Shown here: positions 5,682 through 55,739 of the stretch, piece by piece | How the letters are laid out: every line of letters starts with the position of its first letter | How positions within the stretch are numbered: position 1 is the stretch's first letter | Assembly: GCF_046119375.1 (NCBI RefSeq) | Contig: NW_027362763.1 | Location: 724,656,001-724,720,000, forward strand | Direction: 5' to 3' | Source of the DNA: Phyllobates terribilis | Lineage: Eukaryota | Length of the DNA: 64,000 nt | Made by a program: the position numbers and the translations under genes | Notes under the pieces: generated by a model | The model's database searches: none | The model's input: the letters and a program-made list of their open reading frames with translations, nothing else | Told to the model about the DNA's origin: nothing

Positions 5682-5846
5682 GAAGATTATGACCGCCTGA
5701 GACCATTGTCTTATCCCATGACCGATGTCTTCCTGATCTGTTTCTCAGTGGTCAATCCGGCCTCATTTCAGAATGTGAAGGAGGAATGGGTGCCCGAACT
5801 GAAGGAATATGCACCAAATGTGCCATTTTTACTGGTGGGCACACAG
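5682..5846 (+). CDS. RHOQ: Rho GTPase TC10/RhoQ, coding exon 3
   Basis: AG|[55 protein letters not shown]|GT; 165 bp, phase 0/0. Confidence 0.97.
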
Positions 5847-6140
5847 GTAGGTGTCGGTGACATTTTAGAAATACAGATGTGCATTGTATTGTTTCATCTA
5901 TCCTCTTTTTTTTTTTTTTTTTTTTTTGTTACCTTTCTGAAAAATAACTTTACTTCTCAGACTTTATAGCCATTAGATAAACTATGATCAGTGAGGATCT
6001 GATCCTTGAGACCCTTCAGTTATACGCAGGAACCCCACCGCCCCCTTTTTTTTTTTTTTTTTTTTTTTTTAACAATAATTTTTATTAAATGTTTTAACAT
6101 TTTGGATAAAGCATGAGTAAAAAGATTTCACATCAAAGCT

Positions 6141-7284
6141 TAGAAAAATATTTAGATTTGAGAGTCCTCAGTGGTTGATACCTTTTTAATAGCTAACTGA
6201 AAAGATGGTAACAAATTGCAAGCTTTCGAGACTACTCAGGTCTCTTCATCAGGCATAGTATACCACAAAATCTGAAGAGTCAAATATTTATACACACAAG
6301 AAAAAAAAATGCAATAGGTAAGACAGGTGATGAAAAGTATAGTGACTATGGAAGAGATAAACAGTTCTGGCTATAAATATTTTAGCAGTTAATAGATAAG
6401 GAGTGTGAAGGTTTTATTGTCCTGTGACCAGGTTCAGTGTTGTGATGGCCTCACAATTCTGAGGAGCACATTCCTTAGTTGATGTAGAATGACCTAAATC
6501 CATGCGACACATTCATTCCTGCTCTGAAAGTGTTAAAGGTCATCATCAGTTTATATTCTGAGACTCTTCTTTCTCTTTGAGATTTGAAGTTACCTTTTAA
6601 TACTAGTAATTTCATGTCTTTGATGCTGTGATCAGGGGAACAAAAATGCTTGGCTACAGGCAGATCTATTCTTTTTCTTTTATTGTGTGGCGAAGATGAT
6701 TCATCCTTGTTCTAAGTTTTTGCCCTGTCTCCCCTACATAAAGACCCCCAGCTGGACATTTGGTACATATAATTAAATACGCTACATTAGATGTGATACA
6801 GTTGAACGTACCTGGGATCTTATAGTCCTGATGTGAATTGGGAATCTTTATCTTGTTTGTGGTCGTTATAAACGGACAGGTTTTACATTTTTTCTGGTTG
6901 CAAGGAAAGGTACCTGTAGCTGGAGGAGATGACAGGGAGCTTCTGACAATGATGCTTCTTAGATTTGGGGGCTGCCTGAAACACAGAAGTGGGGGGTCTG
7001 GAAATATGGATTGTAATCGGGCATCTTTTTGTAGTAAGGGTTGTAGTTTCCGTGCAGCTCTTCTTAGCGCCTCCAGATTTGGATTGTAGGTGACTACTAG
7101 AGGCACCCGGTTGTTTTCTTGTTTGGTTTTGTAATGTAGGAGATGATTCCTTGATATTCTGGTGGCTCTTGTAATCTGGTTCTCAACTGTTCTTGGATGG
7201 TAGCCCTGTTTCAAAAAGGTCTTTCTGAGGCCATCAAGGTGTTTGTCTCTATCCATCAGGTTGGAACATATCCGATTATATCTG
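6141..7284 (-). mobile_element. Penelope-like element, 5'-truncated (RT thumb + GIY-YIG endonuclease + pLTR)
   Basis: RYNRICSNLMDRDKHL... linker with CxxxxCxxC, then AYLIICTKCPAGGLYVGETGQKLRTRMNH (GIY-YIG); one A-run frameshift at ~6670, ORF otherwise continues PVAKHF...GMN to stop at 6475-6477; hammerhead in 3' region. Confidence 0.9.
6217..6255 (-). ncRNA. Minimal type-I hammerhead ribozyme
   Basis: Minus strand reads UGC-CUGAUGA-A-GAGAC-CUGAGUA-GUCUC-GAAAGCU-U-GCA: intact CUGAUGA and GAAA cores, 5-bp stem II, palindromic AAGCUU helix III, 3-bp stem I. Confidence 0.8.
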
Positions 7285-7396
7285 AAAAGTTTTGAAGATC
7301 GAACTCAGTGTTTATTAGATCTGAGACAATACTGTATGTGTAGCAGTTACCCCTACCCTTCGTTTTTTTTTCTGTTCTATCTGTATTTTGGTGATC

Positions 7397-10300
7397 ATGG
7401 TCATCGTTGGGGAGCTCTGGTACAGCCAGCAGAAAAAGGACACTCTTATTGGAATATGTATAACCAGAGGCATTGACCCCGTCGGCAAAAACAAAGAACA
7501 AATGGTTGCTGCACTGGCGCAACTGGAGGCAGAGCAAGCCCTTCTCCAGACCTCAGCAGGGCCAGGGGTCAGCCGAGATATGGACAGTACTACTGCAGGG
7601 GTCCCACCTGTAGACGCATGCTGCGTCAGCGACCAGGGCAGCGTGGACCCCTATCTGCAGATGGCTCTACAGCAACTTCCTGCAGAGGATCATGAAGGAC
7701 AGCTGAAAGTCATTCAGCAGCACCAGGAGGCCGAGAGGGCCGAGTGAGCTCAGCGAGAGGCAGAGCGAGAGGCCCAAGCCCAGAGGGCCCATAAACTGCA
7801 GATGGCCAAACTCGGGATCCCAGCATCCACCTCACGGAACGGTGAGACCAACAATGCGACCCTGTTTAAGCCCCGTCCAGAGCATTTTCCTGTGATGGAA
7901 AAGGACGGCGACCTCGACACCTTTCTGAGGGGTTTTGAAAAGACTTGCAGACAATACCAGCTGCCGGAGGGGCAGTGGGCCCGATACGTAACTGCAGGGC
8001 TGCGAGGCAAAGCTCTGGATGTGTTTGTAGCTCTTCCTCCGAGCCTCGATGGGAACTATGATGCCATTAAGCAGGCCCTAATCCAGAGGTTTCAACTGAC
8101 TCCTGAGGTGTACCGTAAAAAGTTCTGGAACCTCCAACGTGGACCGCACGACAGTTACAGCGATGTGGTGCATGGGCTCCGAACCAACTTTGAGCAGTGG
8201 ATCCAAGGACTGTCAGCGACCACCTTTGAGCAGCTAAAGGATCTGATGGTGAAAGACCAGTTCCTGCATCTGTGTCCGACTGAGGTACGGCAGTTCGTGA
8301 TGGATCGAGAGCCACCAGATGGCAATAAAGCAGCGCAGATCGCAGACACCTACGAGGCCAACCGGAGACCGGAGGTGCGGAAGCTGGTTGTCGCCAGCTG
8401 GAAAGGGGGTAAGCCATCAACCACCATCCCTGCCCTTGCCAGCCGACCTTCCAGAGGCCTTTTTCCCGTTACCAATGCCCGGCCTGCATCTGATGCCCGC
8501 AGGTGTTATTTCTGCAACCAGACTGGTCATCTCAGCGCCACTTGCCCAGAGAAGCAGAGGAAGAAACCCCCCCCCCCCCCATCCAAGGCCCTAGGGCCTA
8601 ATGTCTCAGTTCTTTTGGTGGGTGGGCCGGTTGGGAGGGCCTGTGAAAACTTGCAGTCTGTCATGGTGGGGGACACTGTCACTGTAGGCCTCAAGGACAC
8701 TGGGGCCGAACGAATCCTCATCCGACCCAAACTGGTGTCCGCTGAAGAGCTTATTCCGGGAAAGACCCTGACTGTCACTGGGATTGGGGGCGTCCGATGC
8801 CCCTTGCCCATGGCCCAGGTTTTTATTGATTGGGGTGCGGGGAGTGGGGTGAAGGAAGTGGGAGTATCTGGAAATCTACCTGCAAATGTTTTGTTGGGAA
8901 CTGATTTGGGGAGGATGTTTGCTTATTATGTCCCTGACACCCCTCCCCGATCTGATACAGTTGGTAAGGTTAATGCTGATAATGTGAATGTCAATGATGA
9001 TGATGTTGATGTTGTATTGGAAGGTACAGGAGAACTCAGCCATGTCACGCTGTGGGGTGATATTGCTGAGGATCCCCTAGCAGGAGCAAGTGTCAGTGCT
9101 AAGGGTAATGGGGAGAGGCACAGGGACCATGAAGCAGGTGGTGCTGTGCCAGCGACCAGTGTCACAACAGATGGTGACCTGGCTGATGGTAGCTGCCCCA
9201 TACGTAGCACTGTGCCTGAGGTAATGGGGGAGGATGGGGAAGAAGTACTCATAGCCGCGCAGGATGATGGGACGGTGTTATTCCCTGGGGAGACGGCCTA
9301 TATAGCCGCTGTTACCCGCAGTCAGAGTGCCCAGAATGCAAGTAACGCCCTGCCTTCTGGACCCTCCTCGGACAGAGGAATAACAGAATCAGGTATGGAC
9401 CCAGAGCCGGTCCCAGTGAGGACGTGGCCTTTAACCTCACTTCTGGCTTCCTCCAGCCAGGAGTTTCAGGCAGCTCTGCACTCCGATGCTAGCCTGGAGA
9501 CGTTAAGGAGCCTCGCTGAGAAGCCCACTTCCGAGTCGGGTAAGGAGAGGGTATTCTGGGACCAAGGGAGGTTGTACCGGGAGACAGTTCCCTGTACACC
9601 CCAACAGGAGTGGCTGAGGGAAAGACAGCTGGTCTTCCCCTACCAATTCAGGGATGAGTTGTTGCGGATCGCCCATGAGATTCCACTCTCTGGACACTTG
9701 GGGGTCAGCAAAACCAAGGCCCGGCTGTCTCACCACTTTTATTGGCCCAAAATGGGGACGGATGTGGTGAACTACTGTCGCTCCTGTACCACGTGTCAAA
9801 GAGTGGGAAAGTCAGGGCCGGCTCCCAAAGCCCCCCTGATTTCTTTGCCAGTGATAGAGGAGCCTTTCCAGAGGATTGCTGTGGACATTGTGGGACCACT
9901 GGCCATACCCAGCAGCTCTGGAAAACGTTTCATCCTTACCGTGGTAGACTGCTACCCGGTATCCGGAGGCAGTAGCCCTGTCCTCAGTTAGGGTGGATAA
10001 GGTGGCGGACGCCCGCTTGGCCATCTTTTTGCGAGTAGGCTTTCCCAGGCAGATGCTTACCGACCAGGGGACCCAGTTCATGTCTCGCTTAATGGAGGCC
10101 CTATGTAAGAAAATGCAGGTGCAGCATCTGGTATCGAGCGCGTATCATCCCCAAACCAATGGTTTGTGTGAGCGATTCAACGGTACCCTCAAACAGATGT
10201 TAAAAATGCTGGTTGAGACCCAGGGACGCGACTGGGAGCGTTACCTCCCACACCTGTTATTTGCTTACAGAGAGGTTCCACAGGCCTCGACGGGGTTCTC

Positions 10301-12440
10301 CCCCTTTGAGCTCCTGTATGGCAGGCGTGTCCGAGGACCCCTTGGGTTGATAAGGGAATTCTGGGAAGCTCGGCTCTTCTTCCCAGGAGTGTCCATCGTG
10401 GAGTATGTCGTGCGCTTCCGTGACAAGATGCAGACCTTGACGCAGTTGGTGCATGACAACATGGCGCAAGCCCAGGCTGACCAGAAGCATTGGTATGACC
10501 AGAATGCCTGAGAGCGGACCTACCAGGTGGGTCAGAAGGTGTGGGTGCTGGTCCCCGTACCAAAGGACAAGCTTCAGGCGGCCTGGGAAGGCCCGTACGT
10601 CATTCACCATCAGCTCAACCCGGTCACCTACGTGATCACTCTTGACCACGCGCGGGGTAGGCGGAAGGCTTTTCACGTTAATATGATGAAGGCTCATCAA
10701 GAATGTGTAGCCTGCGTCCTACTGGTCTGCAGCCTGCCCGAGGATGGGGAGGACGACCCCCTCTTGGACATTCTGGCCCAAGCGAAGGCCAGCGGGTCCC
10801 TAGAGCAGGGTTCCCCAACTCCAGTCCTCAAGGCCCACCAACAGGTCATGTTTTCAGGATTTCCTTAGTATTGCACAGGTGATAATTACATCACCTGCAC
10901 AGGCAATAATTCCATCACCTGTGCAATACTAAGGAGATCCTGAAAACCTGACCTGTTGGTGGGCCTTGAGGACTGGAGTTGGGGAACACTGCCCTAGAGG
11001 ATGTAGAGATAAGCGCCTTGCTATCCGCAGACCAGAGGTCTCAGATGCGAGCAGTGCTGAAACCCTTCCAAGCAGTGTTCACCAACCTGCCTGGCAGGAC
11101 TGTAGTGGTGGTCCATGAAGTGGACACCGGGAATCATGCCCCACTCCGGCGGACAGCCTATCGAATCTCCGACGAGGTGCAGCATGTCATGCGCCAGGAG
11201 GTCGAGGAGATGCTGAAATTGGGGGTGATTAAGCGGTCCAAGAGCGTGTGGGCCTCACCTGTGGTCCTGGTGCCAAAGCAGGACCAGACCACCCGGTTCT
11301 GTGTGGACTACAGGGGGTTCAACGCTATCACAGCCTCTGATGCACAACCAATGCCACGCATTGAGGAGCTGCTTGAGCGGTTAGCCAGCGCGAGCTATCT
11401 CTCCATTATGGATCTGAGTCGTGGATATTGGCAGATTCCCTTGAGCCCCGGAGAAGTCCGCCTTTATCACCCCCTGCGGATTGTATGAATCCACAGTCAT
11501 GCCTTTTGGCATGAAAAATGCCCCTGCCACTTTCCAGCGAATGGTCAACCACCTGCTCCAGGGACTGGAGAGGTACGCAGTGGCGTACCTGGATGACATT
11601 GCCGTCTTCAGTCCCACCTGGGAGGATCACCTCGAGCATCTGCAGCAGGTGCTCGGGCGCATTCACCAGGCGGGCTTGTCCATCAAGCCAGGAAAGTGCC
11701 AGATGGTCATGAACGAGGTCCACTACCTGGGGCACCGGGTAGGTGGGGGTACTCTGAAGCCAGAGCCTGGGAAGGTGGACGCTATCGTGTCCTGGCCCAC
11801 CCCCAGGACCAAGAAGCAGGTGCAGTCCTTCTTGGAGACCGCAGGGTACTATAGACGCTTTGTACAAGACTATAGTAGCCTTGCGAAGCCCTTGACAGAC
11901 CTCACCAGGAGGAGCCTACCCCATTCAGTCAAATGGACAAAGGAATGCGAGGTGGCCTTTGGGGCTTCGAAGACTGCCCTGAGCAGCTCTCCTGTGCTAA
12001 AGGCGGTCGACGGCACACGGCCACTCTTTGTACAGACCGACGCCAGTGAGTTTGGCCTCGGTGCTGTACTCAGCCAGGTCGACTCGGGGAACCAAGAACA
12101 CCCCTTGTTGTACCTAAGCCGGAAACTGCTGCCGAGGGAAGTGGCCTATTCCACCATAGAGAAGGAGTGCCTGGCCATTGTATGGGCCCTGCACCACTTA
12201 CAGCCTTACTTGCACGGGCGCCCCTTCACTGTCGTGACTGACCACAACCCCCTGAGTTGGCTGCACACCATGTCGGTGCCAACGGAAGGTTGTTACGCTG
12301 GAGCCTCACCTTCCAGCAGTACGACTTTACCGTTCAACACTGCAAAGGCAGCGAGCATGGCAATGCTGATGGGTTGTCCCGGCGAGGGGAGCCTCCAGAG
12401 ATACGCCTGGAGGAGTACCAGAATGTCCTACCTCCATAGC
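7397..12440 (+). pseudogene. gag-pol polyprotein pseudogene (SCAN-like capsid, CCHC knuckle, protease, integrase, RT, RNase H)
   Basis: CYFCNQTGHLSATC (~8504), DTG protease (~8696), HHCC integrase zinc finger (~9670-9800), D..D..E (VDIVGP, TDQG, ERFN), YLDD (~11586), TDAS RNase H; disabled by CGA>TGA stops at 7745 and 10509, frameshifts near 9950, 11450, 12270 and a MITE at 10806. Confidence 0.92.
10806..10991. mobile_element. hAT-type MITE (186 bp) inserted in Gypsy pol
   Basis: ~43-bp TIRs CAG(G/T)GTTCCCCAACTCCAGTCCTCAAGG..., perfect 8-bp TSD CCCTAGAG (10798-10805, 10992-10999). Confidence 0.92.
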
Positions 12441-12460
12441 GCAGTCTAAAAAGGGGGAGG

Positions 12461-13642
12461 TGTCAGGCAAAATGTATTTTTGTCCTAGTTTTAAAAATGA
12501 GAGATGTCTTAAATCTCCACCCCCTGCTCATTTGGAAGAGGCTACATAGAACTCACTCTTGCTTTCCCCCTAACAAGGAATTTTTATTACTGCCATAAAA
12601 CCTCAGCTAAAGAACAAGCATTCAGGTATAAACTGGAACTCCCTCCAAAATCCTATTGTCTAACTGTACAAACTTTTAATGTCGAGTTTAATAGTGCACA
12701 TGACTGTCACAAACATAAGGACCACATTTTTTGGATGTTCACCTTTTTCCAATTGCGACGGTATATCTTACATAACTGGGAGACCACCGGAAGCACGGGA
12801 AATGGATTCTGAGCGTCAGAGATATCATATTTGATATCCATCTTCATGAATATTGGTGACGGCAAACATGATGTCTCCATCTTGGAGGTGGGACCCCCCC
12901 ATACCAAGATATGAAATCTGAAGGATTTTTATGTCTTGTGCAGCTGGGTGGGTTCACAAAACCGAGCCCCCGTGTGAGGTAAACAACATGGGTGTCTCCT
13001 AGTGTTTTGGCCTCTTACTAAAAACCAGAACGGACATTTTACTTCATTCTAACCCAGGGACGTCAGACGCATGCACTCCTCGTCGCTGCGTGGAGGAATC
13101 ACACCTAATTTCCGGGGAGCCGTCCCCCCCCCCCCCACAGAATCTGAGACCATCACCTCGTGGCGCAGGTTTTGCTATCCCTTATCCCTTTTATTTTAAT
13201 AACTGTTTTATGCATATATGTAAATTGTCTCTCTTTTTATAATATCTTGTATATCTTTTGTAAACACTTCCCACTTTCGGGAGTAAATCATTATTATTTA
13301 CCAGCTTCGTTCTTCTTGTCCTATGTCGACGAGCAAACACGTTCCTCCCCCACTAATTCACGTTACCTAACGGGTACCCGATCCACCTGTTAAGCGATCG
13401 GTGGTGGCAGTATACCAGTATTTGTGATATTGTGGTTTGAGGGTGGCTGGACGGAGGTATATATACATTCCTGGAAGGAACTGGTGGTATATATACGTCC
13501 TCTCACATCACGTGCCACAATAGTCGACATAAATTAGAGCAGCTGCGCCCTGTTGCTTATCCTCGGTCAATACCGTGTTTGACCAGCAGGATAAGGGGGC
13601 ACCAGAGGGCTGCAAGGTCTGACCAAGTGTGTTTTTGTGACA
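12461..13642 (+). repeat. Gypsy LTR (1182 bp)
   Basis: Starts TGTCA immediately after purine tract AAAAAGGGGGAGG; ends TGACA; no second copy in the window. Confidence 0.85.
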
Positions 13643-13644
13643 AT

Positions 13645-13662
13645 TGGTGGCAGCGGTGGGAT
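13645..13662 (+). other. Primer-binding site, tRNA-Leu
   Basis: TGGTGGCAGCGGTGGGAT = exact reverse complement of the last 18 nt (ATCCCACCGCTGCCACCA) of vertebrate tRNA-Leu(AAG/TAG type) including CCA. Confidence 0.88.
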
Positions 13663-13716
13663 AAATATTTTTCTATCTACTGGCTAACACGGTACAAGAA
13701 TATATATATTTTCCAT
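13662..13716 (+). mobile_element. Probable 3' tail of the Penelope-like element, in opposite orientation to its body
   Basis: First 14 nt TAAATATTTTTCTA are the exact reverse complement of 6141-6154 where the PLE body stops; followed directly by the second TSD copy (13717). Confidence 0.65.
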
Positions 13717-14711
13717 ACATCAAAGCTTTGCATGAATACTCTTAAAGATATAAAATCCCCCCCCTACCCTTCTCTCCTCCCAAAATGCAGCAATTTATGT
13801 AATGTATAACGTCTTCCATACCTGAAATAAAACTCTCCTCTAACTAAGCAAATCTGTTCGTTTTAATTTTTGTCCGCCCTATTGTCCATGCTACATGGTT
13901 ACAAGTGTCCCGGAACCACCTGACTAGACCTTCAAGATCCCCAAAGTGCCTTGAATGTCGTTTAATAAGTACCACTCGGAATGAGCAAATGGCTGAACCA
14001 CTCCCACGATTTCTTCTTGTGAGCATTTCCTTTCTAGTAATTGTCTCCACTTTTCAAAGAATTTCCCGGTCAGTTTGGTCTTATGCCTTTCTGCCTCCAA
14101 TTTTTCTAAAAGAATCAGCTGTTTTAGGTTGGACACCACTTCCTTCACGGAGGGAGCCTTCTCCGATATCCAATTTCGTAGAATGCATTTTTTTGCCAAG
14201 ATCATGATACTGTGTATTAGGGTGAGTCTGCGTCCTCGTTGACCTATATCCTCCCCTTCAAACCCTTCTCCTCTGTAATGAAAAATCCATGGATCTAATG
14301 CCCAATCCCCCCCCCCCCCCCAGATCCTCTTAACCAGACTCCTAATACTCTTCCAAAAAATTTGAATTGTTTTACATCTCCATAACCTGTGAAACATGTC
14401 AGTATTATCTTCTTGACATTTCGGGCAGGGCCTCCGTCGGATTCCACCCTCCCCCCGAATCGGGACATTGAACCCATAAATGGCCCTGTGAATAATCCTA
14501 AATTGGGTATCTCTCCATGCCTCATTAATCACGTTTTTTTTCATTGTTGCCCGTCCTTGTAGGATCTTATCACTGCCCCTTTTAATGTTTTCCAGCCACT
14601 TCAGGCATCTAGGTACGGATAAGGTTCTATGTCTGAAGAAATATTGAAGGTGGCCCCTCATACTCTTGTTGGGTGGGTCACATCCTCCTCAATCGTCAAT
14701 TAAAGAAGTTG

Positions 14712-41772: not shown

Positions 41773-42189
41773 GTAAGTGTCACCTGACAGATGGTTTGAT
41801 GTGACCGGGCTCCTCCAGGGTCACTACGAACTACAACTCCCCGCATTCCTTATGACTCACAGTGAGTCAGATCATGTTGAGAGTTGTAGTGTTCATCATT
41901 TTCTCAGAAAAGAGATCTTTTTATACTGCAGTATTTGTGGCGTAGACTCCAGCATCGATGTGATCGTGGCCCTATGACAGCTCTGACGATCTGGGTCACA
42001 TTCCCAGTTTTGGGTAATGTTCCCTTCTGTGTCGGAGGCGTCGTCACAAATTGTGGCACGTTTCATTGTGAAAATAACGCTAATCTACATCAGTGGGGTC
42101 AGCTGCCTCTTTTTTTATTAAATGAGTTGATTGGTCTCTGATGTCAGATGTCAGAGCACACGTGTCAAACACCGGCCTGTGGGCCAAAT

Positions 42190-42700
42190 GTGGGGCCCAT
42201 TTATTCTGTATGGAGGGCTATGTGGGGCCATTATTCTGTATGGAGGACTATGTGGGGCCCATTATTCTGTATGGAGGACTATGTGGGGCCCATTATTCTG
42301 TATGGAGGACTATGTGGGGCCATTATTCTGTATGGAGGACTATGTGGGGCCCATTATTCTGTATGGAGGACTATGTGGGGCCCATTTATTCTGTATGGAG
42401 GACTATGTGGGGCCCATTATTCTGGATGGAGGACTATGTGGGGCCCATTATTCTGGATGGAGGACTATGTGGGGCCCATTATTCTGGATGGAGGACTATG
42501 TGGGGCCCATTATTCTGGATGGAGGACTATGTGGGGCCCATTATTCTGGATGGAGGACTATGTGGGGCCCATTATTCTGGATGGAGGACTATGTGGGGCC
42601 CATTATTCTGGATGGAGGACTATGTGGGGCCCATTATTCTGGATGGAGGACTATGTGGGGCCCATTATTCTGGATGGAGGACTATGTGGGGCCCATTACG
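42190..42700. repeat. 30/31-bp minisatellite (16 units)
   Basis: TGTGGGGCCCATTATTCTG(T/G)ATGGAGGACTA; follows a hAT-like end GTGTCAAAC..GGCC; copy at ~52547-53055. Confidence 0.95.
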
Positions 42701-42992
42701 CTGTATACTGTTTGGCCTCCCTGGGTTAGAGGGAACCTGTCGCCTCTCCTGACATTTTAGTAAATACTTGTTCTCCTTCTAATAGAACGATTCTGAAGCT
42801 TCTTTTCTGAGAACTCCACATTGTTCTGCTCCTCTCTTACTCATTCGGGAAATTTGTACATACATGGGCAAATGGGTGGTCCGGGTATGGATGAAGGACC
42901 CTACACCGTCTTCATGTGCACTACATGTCTCTGATAGGAGGGGTAACGCCCAGTTGCCAATGGATTAATATATTTCTTGGAGGTGTAACAGA

Positions 42993-44269
42993 GTGTGGAG
43001 TCGGTAAGCCAAACCCCTGACTTCTCAGTTTCCCTGACTTCCGACTCCCAACTCCACAGCCCTGCTTCACTACTGAGCGTGGACATAAAGTGCAGCACAG
43101 ATTCATCTCAACTAAAAGCAGAGACCCTTATATCAGGAACAGAACAGACATTTATAGGTCATTTCATAACTTTCCCAAATTCTTCTGAAAACATTTACAG
43201 CACATCTTGCATTGTACTACTGTACCCCATTTATTATATAGTTTCGGAGTCTGGCTATTTTAGGCCTCTTTCACATGTCCGTGTCTTCAGTACGCGTGGT
43301 GACAGTTTTCACACGTAGAGGCAGTCAAATGAATGGGTCTGCGCACACGTCAGTGTGTTTCCACGGACCGTTTCCACGACATACTGACATGACCATTTTT
43401 TTCACGCTGCACGGGTTGTAAAGCATCCACATAGATGACATCCGTGTGACACGTACCGGCGCCTGGGAATCAGCAGTACATTTAGTGCTGTTCCCAGACA
43501 CCGGGTGCTGATGGCATCTGTCATCATTGTACCCTGCTGTCGCTGTGAACAGCACCAGCAGGGGACAATGTTGACAGTTGTATTGTGCCTCCGCTGTGTC
43601 CAGCAAGTTTAAAAATAAGACTAAAATAAAAAAACACTTATACTCGCCTGTCCAAAACACTGTCCCATCCTGTAATCCATCTGACCGACAATTCTGTATC
43701 AGCGTCTGCAGTGGCTTGATTCGACTGCAAATGCTGAGGAGCAGAGGAGAATGCCACTGCGCTGAGCTCACTGAGCGATGTCCTGTCACTCACTGAGCTC
43801 AGCGCAGGTCAGGTACCCGCTCGCTGCAGCGAGTCATTCTCCTCTGCTCCTCAGCGTGTGCGGTCGCATCAAGCCTCTGCAGACACTGATGCATAATTGC
43901 CGGTCAGATGGATTACGGCATGAGACAGTATATCGGACAGGAGAGTATGTGTTTTTTTATTTTTACAGTTGCTGGACACAGTGGGGGCAGAATACAACTG
44001 TCAACATTGTCCACTGCTGGTGCTGATTGCAGCGCAAGCAGGGGACAGATGAGAGATGCCTCCGTCACCTGGGAACAGCGCTGCCTATGCCGCTGATTCC
44101 CTGGCGCCGGTACGTTGATCCTGATGCGGCACATGGTTGCCACACAGGTGGACACTTATATCTCCTGTACTGTTTTTTCCAGTACCGGAAATATCAGGAC
44201 GCTTGAAACAGACCTTATACTGACTCCGAATCCACCAAAATGTACATCAACTCTGACTCCACAGCCCTG
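42993..44269. mobile_element. hAT-type CAGGGCTGTGGAGTC MITE, interrupted
   Basis: 8-bp TSD GTAACAGA (42985-42992, 44270-44277); homologous to 48715-49039; split by insertion at 43263. Confidence 0.7.
43263..44214. mobile_element. Harbinger-type non-autonomous element (952 bp) with ~200-bp internal inverted repeat
   Basis: TTA|GGCCTCTTTCA ... TGAAACAGACC|TTA; ~43553-43760 inverted at ~43820-44027. Confidence 0.75.
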
Positions 44270-45385
44270 GTAACAGAGGAGCAGCACTATGCAGTGTTGT
44301 GAGAACTGATGCTCCAGAATTGTTATATTACAGGGAATTAACTCTTTACTAAAGCCCCCATACACCTTATATACCTGTCAGACGATCATTGGTTTGACCG
44401 ATCATTCATCTGGCAGCTGTCTCAGCTGTCTCTCCCAAACTCGGGAGCAAGCGGTCCTGTGTTCTGTGTGAGACATCTCTGTCGGTGGCTTACCTCGAGA
44501 ACCAAAATCTCTGTAGTTTGAAATCAGACATGTTGGATCTTTATGTCTCCCGTCATCCTCTGTCAGGGGCCCCCATGCACATTAGACTGTCGGCCGAACC
44601 TGTCGATATTGGCAGTTTCGGACAACGTTAGTGTATGGGGGGCTGAACGCATGTCAGGAAATGTGAAATATCCTCTTTAATGAAGCTTTCTTTTGTTACT
44701 GATTTAACCTGATAACGACCAATTGGCGTAAATTTGCGGCTTACTTGGCTTTAGTCTCATTAGCCATGTGGGTGAAAAAAAAAGTTATGACTGTTGAAAA
44801 GTGGTGAAGCAGAAATGGTAAAAGAAAATAAAACGGTCTGGTTATTTCGCCCCTTTCAGGCCGCCTGCTCATTAAGGGGTTAATTAGGGAAAAATGATGA
44901 TTAATGAGGACATGAATTTATAGTATTAAATATGACAATAAATAGAGTAACATTTCCATAATCTGCCATTGTGTGACTGAAAACCTGCCATCCTGTATGT
45001 ACAGTGTGTACTGGAGCTCACACATAGTCATATCAATTGTCTGCCAGTACCTTGTTTCCTCACCCATTTTACTTAAATCCTCTGCATCATAACATATTGT
45101 GGACTTTTTATAACTGATTTCATCAAGACTGGCGACGTTCTTGTCAGTCTTACAGGAAACGTGCTGGAGTCGGAGGCGCCAGATTCATTAAGAGGAGCGT
45201 CTGACAAGTGATGTGCGCCTCCATCCACCTCACTGCAAATCTTACTCCAATCAGGTACCGGAGTAAGATTTCTGACTTAAGGTCTCTTACAGCTCGTCAT
45301 GAATTGGACTGATTGTTCTTTCACCCGTTTCTCATGTTGGTGGTTATTATCACAATGATTTACTGATGTGATGTCTGTTTTACAG

Positions 45386-45451
45386 GTGAGAAGAAGCTGG
45401 GCACAGTAATCACCCCCGACACATGGAAGGCAGGGGCCAGGAATACCACTG
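45386..45451 (+). CDS. CRIPT: CRIPT exon 2
   Basis: CAG|gt EKKLGTVITPDTWKAGARNTT g|GTAAAT; 66 bp. Confidence 0.96.
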
Positions 45452-46084
45452 GTAAATCACTTATGACATTTCATCTCACAGAGTGTCTTGTGTGTCCTTT
45501 TCTTACTTTGTGGACATTTTTTTTGTGTGTTTGAAGTGTGCCAACATCTAACAGTCTGAGAAATAGTAAGCGTAGGGAGTAGATGACACCTCTGCCACCA
45601 TCTTCCCATCCTTTATAGTGTCTTGTCTGTTCTCTCCTTCAAGCAGGGATATTTCAGGGCGTCAGAGCTGCTCCTCTACCATTTATTTAATTTAGTTTCT
45701 TAAATGAAACCGGTCACCGGGATTTACCTCTATCAGGTCACTTGTTGACTAGATGGGCGCGGCCTTGCTCAATGCAAGTGAATTGAGCGAGGCCAAATGC
45801 TGCCGAAGTATGCAAATCGTATACCAGCAATCATATGACCACCCGCTCCCAGCACTGGAGAATCCTGACAGCACGCAGTGTGTGTGATGTGAGGATTCAC
45901 CAGTCTGCAGACAGAGTTTCACTGCAGACTTGTAGACTAAGACCAGACAACCCCTTTAAACTCTGACTGTGAGTATTTAAAAATTAAGTTAAAAACGTCA
46001 CTCCCCGCAGTCACCTGATTAGTCTAGGATCGCTGTCAATCAGTTCCACAGCGCAGACACTATGGGTCTCGGAAAATGGCGACT

Positions 46085-46397
46085 TTTTTTTTTTTGCCAC
46101 TTAAATAAAATAAGAACCTATACATGTGTGGTGTCTACGAACTCGTAATGACCTGGAGAATCATAATAGCAAGTCAGTTTTAGCATTTATTGAATACAGT
46201 AAAAAAAGCAAACAATTGTAGAATTGCACTTTTCCAGTACACGACATGGTAAAACCAATGGTGCCATTCAAAAGTAAAACTCGTCTCGCAAAAAAAAAAA
46301 GCTATCACATGGCCATATTGACGGAAAAATAAAAAAGTTATGGCTCTGGGAAGAAGGGGAGCAAAAAAACGGAAAATCCTAAGGTTGCCAAGGGGTT
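46085..46397. mobile_element. Right end of a TTAA/piggyBac-like non-autonomous element
   Basis: Ends ...CCAAGGGG-TTAA; related end at ~44883 and a matching left end TTAA-CCCCTTAATGACC at 49233. Confidence 0.45.
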
Positions 46398-47855
46398 AAT
46401 GGTACCAGTGAACATAAATTCCCTTAAAAACTGATTTTATTATTTTGATTACAATACACCAACACTAAACCCTGTGTACAATTATTAAAAAAAGGTAGTT
46501 TTAAGAGACTAATCACAGCCAGGAAGGACCTATATATGACTCTAGTCTTCACCTACTGCTGTTCCTACCCACCGGCAGAGATTGGCACCCTAAGATACGA
46601 GAACTGTGCGCCCGCTCAACGGCGGCTTTCCCTAATGTCCCTGGTACAGTCCTATTTCTAATACAACCCTGCAGTAGAATGAAGACAGAAAAGGTATACA
46701 GGCATCATAGAAGTCTGTATCTGTGTTGTAATGAATTGACATAGTCCGATTCACACTTTTTGACATATGGTACCAGGACACCATAGCCATGTAGGTACAC
46801 GATGATACTAAGACGTGCCTTGTTGACATTCATACTAGAACACTTTCCTTTAAGTTTCCCTCTCATTTTGAAAGCCTAAACATAGCATATGCTATTCTTT
46901 CCTGTAGCAGAAAAAAAAAGTAAAACCTGTAGGATAACTCTGGGATCTTTTCACATTTGTGCAGTCCTAACTCCAGTAGTAAAGGAGGATCAACTGTATG
47001 TGAAGTATTCTTCTTCTTTATAGGCATAGTGTACTGGTACATAGAAATCAGATATTGCTATATACCTGTACATTTCTTTACCTGCATATTGGGGGCAAAA
47101 TAAAAGTCGGAGTTTGTTTTTGACATTTTTTAATGTACACTTTCTAAAAATGAATGTCACAAACCAGTAAATAACATGGACATATTTGGTGATTGGTAAA
47201 TGGCAGAAATAATGGCGCAATTTTTTTTTTTATTTACAACTTTTTTTATAGGTAAAAAAATAAATAACACAGATGTAATAACACTTACATATGTATTTGG
47301 CAAAATGGTATTTAAAAAAAACGACAGGTCGTCCCTCTAAAGAAATAAACTTCAGAAAGCAAAGCTTTTGTAAAAATAAAAAAAAGTTATGGCTGTTACA
47401 GCTATGAATAAATGGAAAAAAAAAAATAGTCTGGACATCTGAGTACGTGCATCACAAAAATGTCATTCTGTATATTTTCTATATGCTTGTGTGTATGTGT
47501 GTGCTATGTATATCTGTGTAATGTGTAAATGCATGTAATGTGTTAGCAGGTGTATAATTTATATATGTCTGCCTAATATAAACCTGCATGTCAATGTGTA
47601 TACGTTTTCCTATCTGTCCCTGGTACCCACTTACGCTGGTAGGTTAGTATGGAGGCTGAAAACAATAAGCGTGTATGCAAAATATCGCTCCCTCAGTTTT
47701 GCCTATGGTGTAATGCTCCATATTAAGACCTTATCAGGCTTCAGATACATAATGAATGTAGTCAGGATTTTTTGTGATTTCTTTGCTTTGTTTTTTTTTT
47801 TTTTTAAAGGACGTTTGAAAACTATAATTAATTTACTTTATCAATTAACTTGCAG

Positions 47856-47910
47856 AAAGCGGCGGCCGAAAACTGAATGAAAACAAAGCCCTGACATCAA
47901 AGAGGGCGAG
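47856..47910 (+). CDS. CRIPT: CRIPT exon 3
   Basis: CAG|aa SGGRKLNENKALTSKRA ag|GTTAGT; 55 bp. Confidence 0.96.
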
Positions 47911-48533
47911 GTTAGTGCCTGCGGAAGCGGTTACCATTGTGTCCATGTCCTCTCCCTATATTCTCCCGGGATACTGCGCTGTACTTGGTCGTTTGCTTTC
48001 TTGTTGTGTCTGGATGGCGGCTTACACATTGTTATATTATCTTGGCTCCTGATCTACAGATGTTGTTCTATGAGCTATTCTCATACCTGCAGCTCCCATA
48101 CACTTTACCCACCATGCACTACAGTTATTTAGGGAAAAGTTGGACCTCACTCATTTTCAATTAATGCCGAACAACCAATTTTACTTTTATCATTTAATCA
48201 TTTTAATTACAATCATTTTGTTACGGGAAAAGAAATTCAGAACTCGTGCAAAAATAGATTTGTCCTATGGCACCAAATGGACCACATTAACTATAATGGT
48301 GTCGCATTGGTCTCTGTTTGGGCGGATGTTATTTTAACAGAAAAAAATTGCCAGTTTGCTGCAATTTTTAGTTGCATTATAGTGCTAATACCAGTGATTG
48401 TCTGCAGTGGTCACACGGGGGAGCTGGGTACGTCATTGCTGCAGTCAGATTTATGGTTACTGAGTTGCGGCAGTGAAAATGTTGCATATCTTTTCACTAT
48501 GCAGTGAGGAAGCTTTCCATCTGCAAAACCTCA

Positions 48534-49236
48534 TTAAAGGGGTATTCCCATCTTCAAGATCGTATTCCAGTATTTAGTAGGTGTAATAATAGTAATATTA
48601 GCAAATACCTCCAATTAGAAATGAAGTATAGTTCTTCTGATTCGCTATGTCGCTTACCCCATGTGCCGGGCATTGCAGGACCTTAGGTATCTATGTTTAA
48701 CAACCACTAGCAACCAGGGCTGTGAAGTTGGTAAGCCAAACCTCCGACTCCTCAATTTCCCTGACTCCAACTCCACAGCACTGGTCACTACTGAGCGGGT
48801 ACATAAAGTGAAGCACAGATTCCTCTCCACTAAAAGCTCAGATCTTTGGATCAGGAACAGAACAGACATTTATAGGACATTTCATAACTTTCCAAATTCT
48901 TATGAAAACATTTACAGCACATCCTGCATTGTACTACTGTACCCAATTTATTATATATTTTAGGAGTCTGTCCATTTTATACCGACTCCAACTCCACCAA
49001 AATGGATACCGGCTCCATGACTCCGACTCCACAGCCCTCCTAGGAACTAATTAATTGTTACTAGGTGAGTGGTCGTAACTATAGATATCTAAGCTATTGC
49101 AATGCCCTGCACATGGGGTATGTGACATAGCGAATCTGAAGAACTATGCTACATTTCTAATTGGAGGTATTTGCTTATTGTTATTACACCCACTGCATAT
49201 TGGAATAGGATCTTGGAGATGGGAATGCCACTTTAA
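48534..49236. mobile_element. MITE family A, copy 6 (carries nested hAT MITE)
   Basis: TTAA-AGGGGTATTCCCATC ... GATGGGAATGCCACT-TTAA. Confidence 0.82.
48715..49039. mobile_element. hAT-type MITE (325 bp)
   Basis: CAGGGCTGTG ... CACAGCCCT(C); 8-bp TSD CTAGCAAC / CTAGGAAC. Confidence 0.8.
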
Positions 49237-49492
49237 CCCCTTAATGACCTGTGACATACATTTTCGTTACAGGTCGCCATGGGGCGATGTATCGCAGGAC
49301 GGCGCGGTGTTCAGGGAAGATCATACTGAGATGTGACCATGGTAACACAAAATAATTCATCTTCCAGGAAAGGTTACGGCCATTTCCAGCCTACAGAATA
49401 GGACAATCCTTCCTCCCTCCATTCATTTACATGAAATTAGCACTATTTAGAGATCGAGCAGGAACAAGAAATGTCATATCTGTCACCAACAA

Positions 49493-49798
49493 TTAAAGGG
49501 GTTGTCTGACAATGTTTTGTTCCCAAAATGCAAGGATTGTTATATGGTGGTAACATTTTTACTGGCCGTAACCCTTCGATCGCCCCAGCGCAGGTGCGAT
49601 GATATTTCAGACCACTGCAGACAATCACGTGCCCCAGCAGTCAGGTGACTGAAGAATGGGACATGGTTGATTCCCGTCCCTGCAGAGACCACTGGAGGGA
49701 CCTGCGCTGGTGTTATACCTGTTGAGCATGTATTCTCTTTTATGTTATAACATTTTCTGCATTTTTTAATTTTTATGTAAGCTGGAAAAACCCTTTAA
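49493..49798. mobile_element. TTAA-flanked MITE (T2/Kolobok-like)
   Basis: TTAA-AGGGGTTGTC ... GAAAAACCCT-TTAA. Confidence 0.6.
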
Positions 49799-50009
49799 TA
49801 TTCCAGTCACTCTCCTTGGAGTTTGGCAGGAAGATTTCAGCTGATTGTTTTTACAACCCAAAATACCAGATTCACTGAGGAAGGGGGGGGGGGGTTGTAT
49901 AGAAATCACTTAAAATAGTAAAAAAAAAAGCGTTAATCTATTTTCTTCCTACTACTGTGGACCACAGTTCTCTAATGTGTTGCACAGGCGGAGCACGAAG
50001 GATGGTTTA

Positions 50010-50203
50010 GCTTCACATTCACACATTCAGTATTTGGTCAGTATTTTACATCAGTATTTGTCAGCCAAAACCCGGAGTGGGTGATAAATACAGAAGTGGT
50101 GACGTGTTTCTATTATACTTTTCCTCTGATTGTTCCACCCCTGGTTTTGTCTACAAATACTGATGTAAAATACTGACCAAATACTGAACGTGCGAACGTG
50201 GCC
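50010..50203. mobile_element. PIF/Harbinger-type MITE, same family as 3630-3812
   Basis: TTA TSDs; internal sequence is the reverse complement of the 3630 copy. Confidence 0.7.
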
Positions 50204-50702
50204 TTAGGTGTTGTGTCCTACTTTAAAAGTTCTCATTTATGGGCCCAGGATGGTGGAAGACATAAAAAGAAGACCCTGGATCTTTAAGTTTTAAAGTAGT
50301 GGATGATCCTTTCAACTTTCCATAAAGTTTCTTTTCCTTTGCTATTCTTCTTGAAAATAAATTGTCAATTGGGTGTAACCATTTTCCAGGTCAGTGTATC
50401 ATGTCTCGTAAAAATCGGATGTTATACTGTGGCTCCGTATGAAATGCAATTTATTTATTTTTTTTGCACCCATAGACTTGAATCGCTGAGTCTTATCTGA
50501 TTTACTAGTACATGCTGCAGTCTTATGATCCTGCAGACAAAACCTTTCCATCTCTCCCATGTTGTTTGCCAATATATTTGTGATTAGTGTTTAAATCTTT
50601 TAAATCTTCATTCACACACACCAATCAAAAAAAAAAATATATATATATATATTATATATGTATATGTGTATGTATGTAATCATTTTTTTATTTCTGTCTT
50701 AG

Positions 50703-50806
50703 GTTTGACCCATATGGAAAAAATCGATTTGCGATCTGTCGTATCTGCAAAAGTTCTGTTCACCAGCCAGGATCACACTATTGCCAAGGATGTGCCTATA
50801 AGAAGG
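50703..50806 (+). CDS. CRIPT: CRIPT exon 4
   Basis: TAG|g FDPYGKNRFAICRICKSSVHQPGSHYCQGCAYKK g|GTAAGC; 104 bp. Confidence 0.96.
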
Positions 50807-52299
50807 GTAAGCAATGGAAAACAAAACCGTAAAGCTGCAGAAGAATAATTCCAAGGATGCAGCAGCTGAAATCCCTGGCGATGAGCTGCGGCCATTAGTC
50901 ACCACTGCTGGGAACATTTAGTATTTTATGACGTCCCTTCAAATAATAGGCATTTACCTGTAAAACAACCTGCGTTCCTTATTCATATCTGTGCTTGGGG
51001 TTCAGCTGCTGCAGGGCTGTCACTGACAGGGGCTGTGACCCAGCTTTTCTGAGAACCAGAATGGCCTATCTGCTCCTTTGCTCATTTATAAATGAGAAAG
51101 GGATATATTACATTTACCAGTTAGAAGTCTGGGAAAGCGGGGTGGCAGTAAGGCAGTGCCACTACATGGCAGATGTTTTCCATCTCTGATTTTGCTACGG
51201 ATTTCACTTAATGCATTTTACGGCTTTTACGTTTGTTTTTGTACACATTTTTCTGCTACATGTGTATGTGGGTGTGAAAACCCTACTGGAACGAAATCCG
51301 TGCCGCACATCTGCAGCAATTCTGTCATGTCTGAATGTGCTCTGAGATCTTGATTGATTGCAGAGATTTTCTAGTAAACCTTTATGAGAAAAGTCTGGGG
51401 TCAGTATGCAAATTCTTGTTACTAGAGCTTCATAGGAGGAGATAGGGGGTCCCCAATTCAAGACACCCCTCTTTTTTGCTTAAAGAGCATATCTTGTTCT
51501 ATAAGGCCCAACGCTTGCATCTATCAATTCTTGTAATGCTTCGTTTCCCCTGTGGTGGCGCTGCAGGAGACCTGGACTCTTACTGCTGGATTCTTCTTCA
51601 GGTTGCAGCTGATTTCTGGGAGTCTCCATCTTGTGATCGTAATGGAGGACCATTGTAATAAAAAGGGATTGTCCATAGAGTACGATCCTTTTAACCCCTT
51701 ATCCACATCCGCAATACATTTCCGGCTGGTCTGCGCACTTACCGTTTGTGATATACCGCTGGCACTCGACTGACTGTTGCACTTGGAGCTCGCACTGACT
51801 GCAATGGTTGTGCCTCTTAGATTAATACAATAGATTGTAATACGTGACCAGCCGGTCGCAGGTTCTATTTACCTTAGAGCCAGGGGTGGGGAACCTCAGG
51901 CCCACGGGCTGTTTACGGCCTTCGGTAACCTTTTATTCAGCCCCCGGCAGCTGTGTTTTGATGGCTGCTAGCCCATTCATCTCATCTTGCCCTGTGCGCA
52001 CGCAGTGTTCACTACTGAACCCTGACGCGCGTGCAGTGAAAAATTACATCCTGACCCCAGTGCCAGCGTCAGGACATACTTTGGGGGCAGAGTTAGCGCC
52101 TGATTAGTACGGCCCCTGAAGGGTGGTATAAATAGCCAAATGGCTCTTGGCAAAAAAAAAAAATGATTCCCCACCCCTGCCTTCAGGGATTAATAAAATA
52201 TATATATATAGAACACCCAAAAATATATTGCTGCACCTCCAAGGGGCTAACACACTGTATAAATCAACGTAAGGTGATGGCAACATCTTCACTCCTTCA

Positions 52300-52399
52300 N
52301 NNNNNNNNNNNNNNNNNNNNNNNNNNNNNNNNNNNNNNNNNNNNNNNNNNNNNNNNNNNNNNNNNNNNNNNNNNNNNNNNNNNNNNNNNNNNNNNNNNN
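52300..52399. other. Assembly gap (exactly 100 N, placeholder size)
   Basis: Run of 100 N exactly between the two duplicated copies. Confidence 1.
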
Positions 52400-55300
52400 G
52401 TCACAAATTGTGGCACGTTTCATTGTGAAAATAACGCTAATCTACATCAGTGGGGTCAGCTGCCTCTTTTTTTATTAAATGAGTTGATTGGTCTCTGATG
52501 TCAGATGTCAGAGCACACGTGTCAAACACCGGCCTGTGGGCCAAATGTGGGGCCCATTTATTCTGTATGGAGGGCTATGTGGGGCCATTATTCTGTATGG
52601 AGGACTATGTGGGGCCCATTATTCTGTATGGAGGACTATGTGGGGCCCATTATTCTGTATGGAGGACTATGTGGGGCCATTATTCTGTATGGAGGACTAT
52701 GTGGGGCCATTATTCTGTATGGAGGACTATGTGGGGCCATTATTCTGTATGGAGGACTATGTGGGGCCCATTATTCTGTATGGAGGACTATGTGGGGCCC
52801 ATTATTCTGGATGGAGGACTATGTGGGGCCCATTATTCTGGATGGAGGACTATGTGGGGCCCATTATTCTGGATGGAGGACTATGTGGGGCCCATTATTC
52901 TGGATGGAGGACTATGTGGGGCCCATTATTCTGGATGGAGGACTATGTGGGGCCCATTATTCTGGATGGAGGACTATGTGGGGCCCATTATTCTGGATGG
53001 AGGACTATGTGGGGCCCATTATTCTGGATGGAGGACTATGTGGGGCCCATTACGCTGTATACTGTTTGGCCTCCCTGGGTTAGAGGGAACCTGTCGCCTC
53101 TCCTGACATTTTAGTAAATACTTGTTCTCCTTCTAATAGAACGATTCTGAAGCTTCTTTTCTGAGAACTCCACATTGTTCTGCTCCTCTCTTACTCATTC
53201 GGGAAATTTGTACATACATGGGCAAATGGGTGGTCGGGTATGGATGAAGGACCCTACACCGTCTTCATGTGCACTACATGTCTCTGATAGGAGGGGTAAC
53301 GCCCAGTTGCCAATGGATTAATATATTTCTTGGAGGTGTAACAGAGTGTGGAGTCGGTAAGCCAAACCCCTGACTTCTCAGTTTCCCTGACTTCCGACTC
53401 CCAACTCCACAGCCCTGCTTCACTACTGAGCGTGGACATAAAGTGCAGCACAGATTCATCTCAACTAAAAGCAGAGACCCTTATATCAGGAACAGAACAG
53501 ACATTTATAGGTCATTTCATAACTTTCCCAAATTCTTCTGAAAACATTTACAGCACATCTTGCATTGTACTACTGTACCCCATTTATTATATAGTTTCGG
53601 AGTCTGGCTATTTTAGGCCTCTTTCACATGTCCGTGTCTTCAGTACGCGTGGTGACAGTTTTCACACGTAGAGGCAGTCAAATGAATGGGTCTGCGCACA
53701 CGTCAGTGTGTTTCCACGGACCGTTTCCACGACATACTGACATGACCATTTTTTTTCACGCTGCACGGGTTGTAAAGCATCCACATAGATGACATCCGTG
53801 TGACACGTACCGGCGCCTGGGAATCAGCAGTACATTTAGTGCTGTTCCCAGACACCGGGTGCTGATGGCATCTGTCATCATTGTACCCTGCTGTCGCTGT
53901 GAACAGCACCAGCAGGGGACAATGTTGACAGTTGTATTGTGCCTCCGCTGTGTCCAGCAAGTTTAAAAATAAGACTAAAATAAAAAAACACTTATACTCG
54001 CCTGTCCAAAACACTGTCCCATCCTGTAATCCATCTGACCGACAATTCTGTATCAGCGTCTGCAGTGGCTTGATTCGACTGCAAATGCTGAGGAGCAGAG
54101 GAGAATGCCACTGCGCTGAGCTCACTGAGCGATGTCCTGTCACTCACTGAGCTCAGCGCAGGTCAGGTACCCGCTCGCTGCAGCGAGTCATTCTCCTCTG
54201 CTCCTCAGCGTGTGCGGTCGCATCAAGCCTCTGCAGACACTGATGCATAATTGCCGGTCAGATGGATTACGGCATGAGACAGTATATCGGACAGGAGAGT
54301 ATGTGTTTTTTTATTTTTACAGTTGCTGGACACAGTGGGGGCAGAATACAACTGTCAACATTGTCCACTGCTGGTGCTGATTGCAGCGCAAGCAGGGGAC
54401 AGATGAGAGATGCCTCCGTCACCTGGGAACAGCGCTGCCTATGCCGCTGATTCCCTGGCGCCGGTACGTTGATCCTGATGCGGCACATGGTTGCCACACA
54501 GGTGGACACTTATATCTCCTGTACTGTTTTTTCCAGTACCGGAAATATCAGGACGCTTGAAACAGACCTTATACTGACTCCGAATCCACCAAAATGTACA
54601 TCAACTCTGACTCCACAGCCCTGGTAACAGAGGAGCAGCACTATGCAGTGTTGTGAGAACTGATGCTCCAGAATTGTTATATTACAGGGAATTAACTCTT
54701 TACTAAAGCCCCCATACACCTTATATACCTGTCAGACGATCATTGGTTTGACCGATCATTCATCTGGCAGCTGTCTCAGCTGTCTCTCCCAAACTCGGGA
54801 GCAAGCGGTCCTGTGTTCTGTGTGAGACATCTCTGTCGGTGGCTTACCTCGAGAACCAAAATCTCTGTAGTTTGAAATCAGACATGTTGGATCTTTATGT
54901 CTCCCGTCATCCTCTGTCAGGGGCCCCCATGCACATTAGACTGTCGGCCGAACCTGTCGATATTGGCAGTTTCGGACAACGTTAGTGTATGGGGGGCTGA
55001 ACGCATGTCAGGAAATGTGAAATATCCTCTTTAATGAAGCTTTCTTTTGTTACTGATTTAACCTGATAACGACCAATTGGCGTAAATTTGCGGCTTACTT
55101 GGCTTTAGTCTCATTAGCCATGTGGGTGAAAAAAAAAGTTATGACTGTTGAAAAGTGGTGAAGCAGAAATGGTAAAAGAAAATAAAACGGTCTGGTTATT
55201 TCGCCCCTTTCAGGCCGCCTGCTCATTAAGGGGTTAATTAGGGAAAAATGATGATTAATGAGGACATGAATTTATAGTATTAAATATGACAATAAATAGA

Positions 55301-55739
55301 GTAACATTTCCATAATCTGCCATTGTGTGACTGAAAACCTGCCATCCTGTATGTACAGTGTGTACTGGAGCTCACACATAGTCATATCAATTGTCTGCCA
55401 GTACCTTGTTTCCTCACCCATTTTACTTAAATCCTCTGCATCATAACATATTGTGGACTTTTTATAACTGATTTCATCAAGACTGGCGACGTTCTTGTCA
55501 GTCTTACAGGAAACGTGCTGGAGTCGGAGGCGCCAGATTCATTAAGAGGAGCGTCTGACAAGTGATGTGCGCCTCCATCCACCTCACTGCAAATCTTACT
55601 CCAATCAGGTACCGGAGTAAGATTTCTGACTTAAGGTCTCTTACAGCTCGTCATGAATTGGACTGATTGTTCTTTCACCCGTTTCTCATGTTGGTGGTTA
55701 TTATCACAATGATTTACTGATGTGATGTCTGTTTTACAG

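Follow-up and report, generated by a model that had tools for sequence, protein, structure and literature searches.

A Gypsy copy with a strong-stop-like right end between the arms of a Penelope insertion in Phyllobates terribilis

A 64,000-nucleotide stretch of the Phyllobates terribilis genome (contig NW_027362763.1:724,656,001-724,720,000, in an assembly of 10.6 Gb; hereafter the window, with positions counted from its first letter) carries a Gypsy element that lies between the two inverted arms of a Penelope-like insertion. The Gypsy copy has a single long terminal repeat (LTR) and continues beyond it into 18 nucleotides (nt) of primer-binding site (PBS), at the end of which Penelope sequence takes over. 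Our best reading, in which our confidence is slightly better than even, is that the gap of a Penelope insertion received a Gypsy reverse-transcription intermediate, joined in without the Gypsy integrase. The parts of this composite and of its target, a long interspersed nuclear element (LINE), are, from left to right:

6046-6141, minus strand: 3' end (poly-A and 3' untranslated region) of an L1-like LINE, the insertion target; 13 of 14 LINE copies align here and again from 13717
6130-6141, plus strand: left copy of the 12-bp target-site duplication (TSD), ACATCAAAGCTT, recognized as a sequence repeat
6142-7285, minus strand: long, tail-less Penelope-like arm, 1144 bp, 5'-truncated, with a broken, putative GIY-YIG region; family copies are 91-96% identical
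7285-7396, plus strand: Gypsy leader, from nt 79 past the PBS to the gag start codon (family alignment)
7397-12449, plus strand: Gypsy gag, protease, integrase, reverse transcriptase (RT) and RNase H (open reading frames; Pfam SCAN, Integrase_H2C2, rve, RVT_1, RT_RNaseH)
12450-12460, plus strand: polypurine tract (PPT), read from the sequence; 262 exact PPT-LTR junctions exist in the genome
12461-13642, plus strand: single LTR, 1182 bp, TGTCA...TGACA (alignment to full-length copies)
13643-13662, plus strand: AT (13643-13644) and the 18-nt PBS (13645-13662), complementary to tRNA-Leu positions 59-76
13662-13716, plus strand: short, tail-bearing Penelope-like arm, 55 bp, inverted relative to the left arm; the tail is present in 17 of 19 Penelope copies
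13717-13728, plus strand: right copy of the 12-bp TSD, identical to 6130-6141
13729-14688, minus strand: rest of the split LINE, C-terminal CCHC region of ORF2, 5'-truncated (alignment; no Pfam match)

The outer frame is that of a Penelope insertion. The ACATCAAAGCTT site is read through once in all 14 copies of the flanking LINE (which we take to be L1-like from its CCHC motif and poly-A) and occurs twice in the window, as a TSD that encloses the whole Penelope-Gypsy-Penelope composite. Inverted arms of which one is tailed, with a TSD around the whole, are what defines such an insertion, and they represent the normal geometry of this family: at least 18 of 29 tail-selected Penelope copies have the two-armed inverted structure, with TSDs of 9-14 bp (an automated two-arm count was set aside, as it was confounded by inverted arms in the reference copies), and the arm junctions of the other two-armed copies show overlaps of 1-7 nt or fillers of at most 15 nt. 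A minimal insertion of this kind (locus L166:1481-1560) consists of arms of about 15-21 bp and 53 bp within a 12-bp TSD, and its 53-bp tail arm begins at the same base as the short arm of the window, which can thus be a primary product. An RT is retained in one family copy, L035 (E 3e-12 for Pfam RVT_1); translations of Penelope copies, L035 among them, show a motif of GIY-YIG type, but Pfam gave no endonuclease match. An exact search for Penelope tails that start at this base after foreign DNA returned four matches, none of them a second Gypsy capture: besides the window, they comprise an insertion of 4 nt, a transposon that came in later and a chimera formed with a different Penelope family. 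A purified Anolis Penelope protein cleaves both strands and extends them, with synthesis beginning at two sites that flank the tail (PMC11167929); this explains why one arm has a tail and the other has none. Since the Gypsy piece lies between the arms and within one TSD, it arrived with the Penelope insertion or after it. An earlier reading made from the letters of the window alone (the sequence-only reading) had found no TSD; this holds for the 5-bp duplication of the integrase, but it overlooked the 12-bp duplication and, with it, the two-armed frame, to which the break and probably also the way in can be traced.

The Gypsy copy itself follows the order gag-pol-PPT-LTR and has no 5' LTR, as the sequence-only reading had it. 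Its Pfam domains (SCAN in gag, Integrase_H2C2/rve, RVT_1, RT_RNaseH) place the integrase upstream of RT-RNase H, a domain order from which we presume a Gmr1-type element; the protease gave no Pfam match and was assigned by position, and the coding region is disrupted by stops and frameshifts (open reading frame list). The 5' LTR, the 5' PBS and 78 nt of the leader are all missing, and AT and the PBS follow the LTR where a 5-bp integrase TSD would be looked for; such a TSD is present in four of the seven ordinary family copies with both ends visible. Hence, the copy shows neither hallmark of an integrase-made insertion (two LTRs, 5-bp TSD).

For the right end, ARAGORN recognized tRNA-Leu(AAG) and tRNA-Leu(TAG) genes in three of five loci tested, and the 3' ends of these genes read GGTTCGA-ATCCCACCGCTGCCA. 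It follows that the 18-nt PBS is complementary to positions 59-76, CCA included, and the tRNA base directly beyond the match is A58. T13662 belongs to both the PBS and the Penelope tail arm (a 1-nt microhomology), so that the break lies at PBS nt 17 or 18; the element thus ends as a reverse-transcription intermediate does, with PPT and LTR followed by the 18 tRNA nt that lie 3' of A58. Strong-stop synthesis has been shown in vitro, in human and mouse systems, to end 18 nt into the tRNA at methylated A58 (m1A58; PMC8599865, which, like the other papers given here by PMC number, is cited for the part of its text that was available), and from these systems we infer m1A58 on the tRNA-Leu of P. terribilis.

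Ordinary copies do not stop there. The sequence after the PBS is CAT(A)GG in 27 of 29 family copies and CATA in all 26 family-A sites among 40 fetched of 85, and the window instead reads AAATATT (AAATATTTTTCTATC), the 3' tail of the Penelope-like element. The observation of AT and an 18-nt tRNA-Leu PBS after the only LTR, followed by an abrupt stop, is therefore confirmed, and the tRNA genes bear out both the cognate 3' end and the position of A58; the continuation that had been predicted beyond the PBS (GGTGGGATCATGG) was wrong, as the family reads GGTGGGAT-CATAGG. An exact genome-wide search for the LTR end and PBS followed by a base other than C matched the window only. A looser search for LTR end and PBS gave 288 matches. 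Of the 47 examined, only the window and a single point variant did not come from other families; the listed matches left unexamined lie for the most part in one satellite. As a side observation, 11 of 27 family copies (L003-L030) have a PBS of 19 nt, with one extra A relative to the tRNA, and 16 the 18-nt form, a ratio not far from the equal split that a mismatch in the source element would produce.

The left end behaves differently. It had been placed at 7391, by the gag start codon and with the letters TGGTGAT-CATGG as its beginning, but these are the usual end of the leader in 27 of 29 family copies, all 29 fetched copies align upstream of 7391, and the family homology of the window extends back to 7285, 78 nt past the end of the PBS. 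A PBS remnant at the gag start codon was accordingly rejected. The family leader between PBS and gag measures 184-194 nt (about 190), and a long leader of this kind had been named beforehand as a finding that would speak against the proposed intermediate; it does so for the left end. Thus, of the claim that both ends match an intermediate, the right end stands and the left, 78 nt inside the leader, does not: the minus strand does not end at or within the PBS, and the left end fits only a minus strand that was unfinished or trimmed. A7285 is common to the Gypsy leader and the Penelope arm, again a 1-nt microhomology. A leader hairpin at this end was considered and dropped as too weak (z of -1.9 and -2.9 for a 53-nt piece in two copies, lost in a 139-nt fold with z of -1.3). 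Separately, one family copy has a same-family LTR nested, inverted, in its leader (L277:1476-1601).

Ends at PBS nt 18 recur in a young sister family, for which 100 of 161 sites were listed. Of these, 79 belong to the family proper: 76 are normal, two jump at PBS nt 18 and one reads into the tRNA; the other 21 comprise 18 of a module type, two that form one snap-back and one leader of another family. No break at +2 to +6 past the PBS was met among the listed sites. Both jumps, L268 (7019-7040) and L270 (7041-7062), join the PBS at nt 18 to the element's own interior in the RT region; L270 is a whole product with a 5-bp integrase TSD and a 3-nt microhomology at the jump, and L268 is similar. 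At five loci genome-wide, the LTR end and PBS continue past A58 into mature tRNA-Leu(AAG), for about 30-47 nt including CCA, before a jump is made, to the element interior in the first and into an inverted copy in the other four:

C5:351790073 (L182), LTR-PBS-tRNA read-through
C8:394585903 (L183), LTR-PBS-tRNA read-through
C13:205595388 (L184), LTR-PBS-tRNA read-through
C2:782344870 (L185), LTR-PBS-tRNA read-through
C2:966769147 (L186), LTR-PBS-tRNA read-through

Taken together, the jumps at PBS nt 18 and the read-throughs, small as their counts are, indicate that this genome has fixed products in which strong-stop 3' ends were linked to the wrong partner. In L186 the read-through ends cleanly at tRNA position 38, adjoining G37 (presumably m1G37); the idea of two read-throughs stopping exactly before G37 was abandoned, since only L186 is clean and L184 has 10 nt of homology at its jump. 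In several other Gypsy families (loci L077, L103, L105, L107, L109, L110, L272, L273) the LTRs are extended by AT, PBS, a related module of 26-27 nt and TGACA, in L103 at both LTRs (1535-1620 and 7379-7440), and sometimes in repeated form; an origin of the module as an inverted copy of U3 was rejected. A satellite of more than 40 kb (C11:651056950 to at least 651098000; L097-L099) has a 52-bp unit composed of LTR end, tRNA-Leu PBS and module.

We reason that the composite may have formed as follows. The Penelope endonuclease would have nicked both strands 12 bp apart, and each nick would have primed an inward cDNA, one begun at the tail-less start site and 1144 nt long, the other begun at the tail start site and 55 nt long. 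Before completion of its second strand transfer, a Gypsy intermediate would carry two free 3' ends: that of the minus strand, which had stalled at, or been trimmed back to, a point 78 nt away from the PBS, and that of the plus-strand strong stop, ending at the copy of tRNA nt 59. Each of these has the polarity suited to pairing with one Penelope cDNA end, and both Gypsy-Penelope junctions show single-nucleotide microhomologies (A7285, T13662); fill-in and ligation would then have made the composite permanent. From the sequence, host end-joining and the Penelope RT are equally candidates for the making of the joints. In a more specific form, which we consider possible but unlikely, the Penelope RT would have left its own RNA for the free 3' end of a Gypsy minus-strand cDNA with the tRNA still attached, copied 6.2 kb and 18 tRNA nt up to m1A58, and there have met the second Penelope cDNA. 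The suggestion of the sequence-only reading, an integrase-free copy of a reverse-transcription intermediate, thus survives in our best reading as far as the right end is a plus-strand strong stop, on the strength of the sister-family jumps at nt 18 and of the tandem census given below; overall, its observation is partly confirmed and its interpretation partly supported.

Several points weigh against joining within one event. The filler of 6.4 kb has no parallel among the sampled two-armed Penelope copies, and the case is single, as no second PBS-Penelope junction was met in the searches. A tRNA-perfect PBS, as in the window, is found in 16 of 27 ordinary copies as well; the left end lies away from the PBS and is scarcely informative, since 4 of 26 family copies break within the first 260 nt past the PBS. 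The sister family contains a tandem copy (L275). The resolution of the age estimates, about 0.5% divergence, would allow simultaneity but does not show it.

The ages were estimated as three-point branch lengths derived from pairwise distances only: 0.020 for the Gypsy interior (17 copies), 0.023 for the LTR (19), 0.019 for the Penelope arm (25) and 0.015 for the LINE (12). The LINE must be the oldest and yet scores youngest, which shows the noise in these values. Differences between 5' and 3' LTRs of family copies are mostly 0.013-0.031 (two are higher, 0.05-0.09), and the estimates suggest that the Gypsy, Penelope and LINE families were active in the same period.

Among the alternatives, the one that survives best keeps the intermediate and changes the timing. 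In it, the Penelope palindrome was already in place when it was broken (as a hairpin or cruciform that was cleaved); the break then took up the same Gypsy intermediate, and inner Penelope sequence was lost. This would explain the end at PBS nt 18 equally well, and inverted arms are fragile; break-site capture of LTR-element cDNA is, moreover, shown in yeast (PMC11372161) and mouse (PMC4516963). Nonetheless, the right arm starts at the primary short-arm start of L166, so that no loss needs to be assumed, and the branch lengths of Gypsy and Penelope are alike (0.020 vs 0.019); we regard later capture as decidedly unlikely. As the two timings add up, an integrase-free Gypsy intermediate, whichever of them applies, is likely.

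A tandem or nested Gypsy (LTR-interior-LTR-PBS-interior) that integrated normally into a Penelope copy, and whose outer ends were removed by two later deletions, would also place a PBS after an LTR. Tandems are found in the sister family (L182 besides L275), an inverted family LTR is nested in the leader of L277, and the leader breaks at the rate of about 4 per 26 copies x 260 nt given above. In the window's own family, however, the census is negative. We fetched 80 of the first 100 listed of the 262 exact PPT-LTR junctions, of which 63 extended to the LTR end, 9 ended too early and 8 had no LTR match in the stretch fetched; a PBS after the 3' LTR was seen in none of the 63 visible ends (and in none of the 80 regions), nor in the 11 ends visible in 20 full-length fetches, that is in 0 of 74 3' LTR ends, and a PPT before the 5' LTR start in 0 of 34 (14 + 20). 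The tandem would further have had to break in a 2-nt window of about 6.2 kb and to undergo two deletions that both ended within the Penelope arms, one of them at a natural arm start. With a tandem rate of at most a few percent, a break probability of about 1 in 1000 (2-nt window) and a few hundred copies, a rough estimate gives about 0.01 expected cases of tandem plus break genome-wide, before the left deletion and the Penelope frame are considered. We hold this origin to be improbable.

Quite improbable, too, is an origin from a closed one-LTR circle, broken open close to the PBS, shortened by 78 nt and then ligated into the gap of the Penelope insertion. It would account for two ends that lie just 78 nt apart on the circle, for the single LTR and for the lack of an integrase TSD, but it gives no reason to expect the break at nt 17 or 18, for which chance would give about 4 in 6200 (either end counted), and the sister-family products break exactly at PBS nt 18. 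Mobilization in trans, with Penelope acting on a read-through RNA of a donor locus that already held the Gypsy fragment between Penelope repeats, has the precedent of Penelope repeats that carry unrelated DNA with a TSD (PMC3846280); no donor was found, the pattern of LTR, PBS and non-C base occurs once in the genome by exact search, and the origin of the PBS-18 junction would merely be shifted elsewhere, which makes this very improbable. An assembly error that joined repeats is scarcely credible in view of the perfect 12-bp TSD that restores an uninterrupted LINE, of arms in the family's normal geometry and of a junction at a biologically defined base, even though short-read contigs did not show the inner junctions. 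These contigs came from four runs (four samples, two studies) among 22 runs found. Over 5700-14300, with at most one gap, two of them run from the Penelope tail into the LINE (X1, 13692-13788; X5, 13687-13804), with Penelope-side overlaps of 25 and 30 letters that fall below the 31-letter bar; no listed contig spans the PBS-Penelope junction (13615-13715), X1 and X5 being without cover at 13615-13658. As contigs show presence and not absence, they neither support nor refute the inner junctions.

Each ingredient of our best reading is known in print, and it is their combination that is unusual. [quoted passage not shown] The window resembles these in that LTR-element cDNA was apparently inserted without integrase; the yeast cases, as far as the available text describes them, are short pieces at induced breaks, whereas here a near-whole element of 6.2 kb would have entered a vertebrate germ line through a break made by another retroelement. 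In mouse zygotes, truncated MuERV-L and MaLR pieces were captured at CRISPR breaks, likewise with microhomologies (1-7 nt there) and no integrase TSD (PMC4516963), but in the text available their ends bear no relation to the PBS and the insert is not enclosed by another retroelement. Aberrant second-strand transfer products have been described for HIV-1 (PMC12657518), with junctions at or just past the PBS copy of the primer tRNA, as in the window, and L182, L268 and L270 are such products. In the retroviral cases described there, the plus strand lands on its own minus strand and integrase inserts the product, while here it was joined to a Penelope arm and left no integrase TSD.

For Penelope elements, inverted arms, an optional 3' tail on one arm, TSDs of 8-12 bp and foreign DNA inside have been reported (PMC3846280, PMC11167929), and the window shares with these known two-armed insertions the inverted arms, the tail on one arm, the TSD around the whole and the foreign DNA within. 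The reported cargo, in the available part of PMC3846280, is host genes or unassigned DNA, mostly between direct pseudo-LTRs (pLTRs), and is read as mobilized in trans; that of the window differs, as its place is the junction of the inversion and its end resembles that of an LTR-element intermediate. Gmr1-type Ty3/Gypsy elements are present in frogs (PMC4131045). Ordinary copies of our family resemble them in having the integrase before the RT, a tRNA-Leu PBS, a PPT, an LTR of the form TG...CA and a 5-bp TSD, and the window copy departs from the type in lacking the 5' LTR, the 5' PBS, 78 nt of leader and the TSD. No description of an LTR-element intermediate inside a Penelope insertion was found in the literature searched, which comprised few subscription journals and no supplements.

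If our best reading is right, the composite preserves, as a fossil, a single event in which two retroelement classes were caught in the middle of their reactions; the gap of a Penelope insertion, with its two inward cDNA ends, could take up kilobases of foreign DNA, and a near-whole LTR element could enter the germ line without integrase. This bears on how Penelope elements carry foreign and intron-containing DNA, and the substrate is testable with the existing purified Penelope protein. As the composite is one dead intronic copy with no sign of function, its weight is mechanistic only. Should the jump of the Penelope RT apply, Penelope RTs would be able to switch in trans to DNA templates from other retroelement classes and to copy them, a simple answer to how Penelope elements move intron-containing genes.

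The composite lies within an intron, after an exon of a Rho-family GTPase host gene; the next exon-like stretch is at about 16215, and a further exon-like translation is found near 26430. Two more features belong to this setting:

5682-5846, plus strand: exon of the Rho-family GTPase host gene (Pfam Ras, E 6e-12)
10806-10991, no strand assigned: miniature inverted-repeat transposable element, 186 bp, with terminal inverted repeats and an 8-bp TSD, CCCTAGAG; not in family copies

The latter is a later insertion into the pol region of the Gypsy copy. Farther downstream, a tandem duplication of nearly identical copies (42043-52400 and 52400-62750; period about 10,354 bp) includes a 31-bp minisatellite and is either a recent duplication or an assembly artefact.

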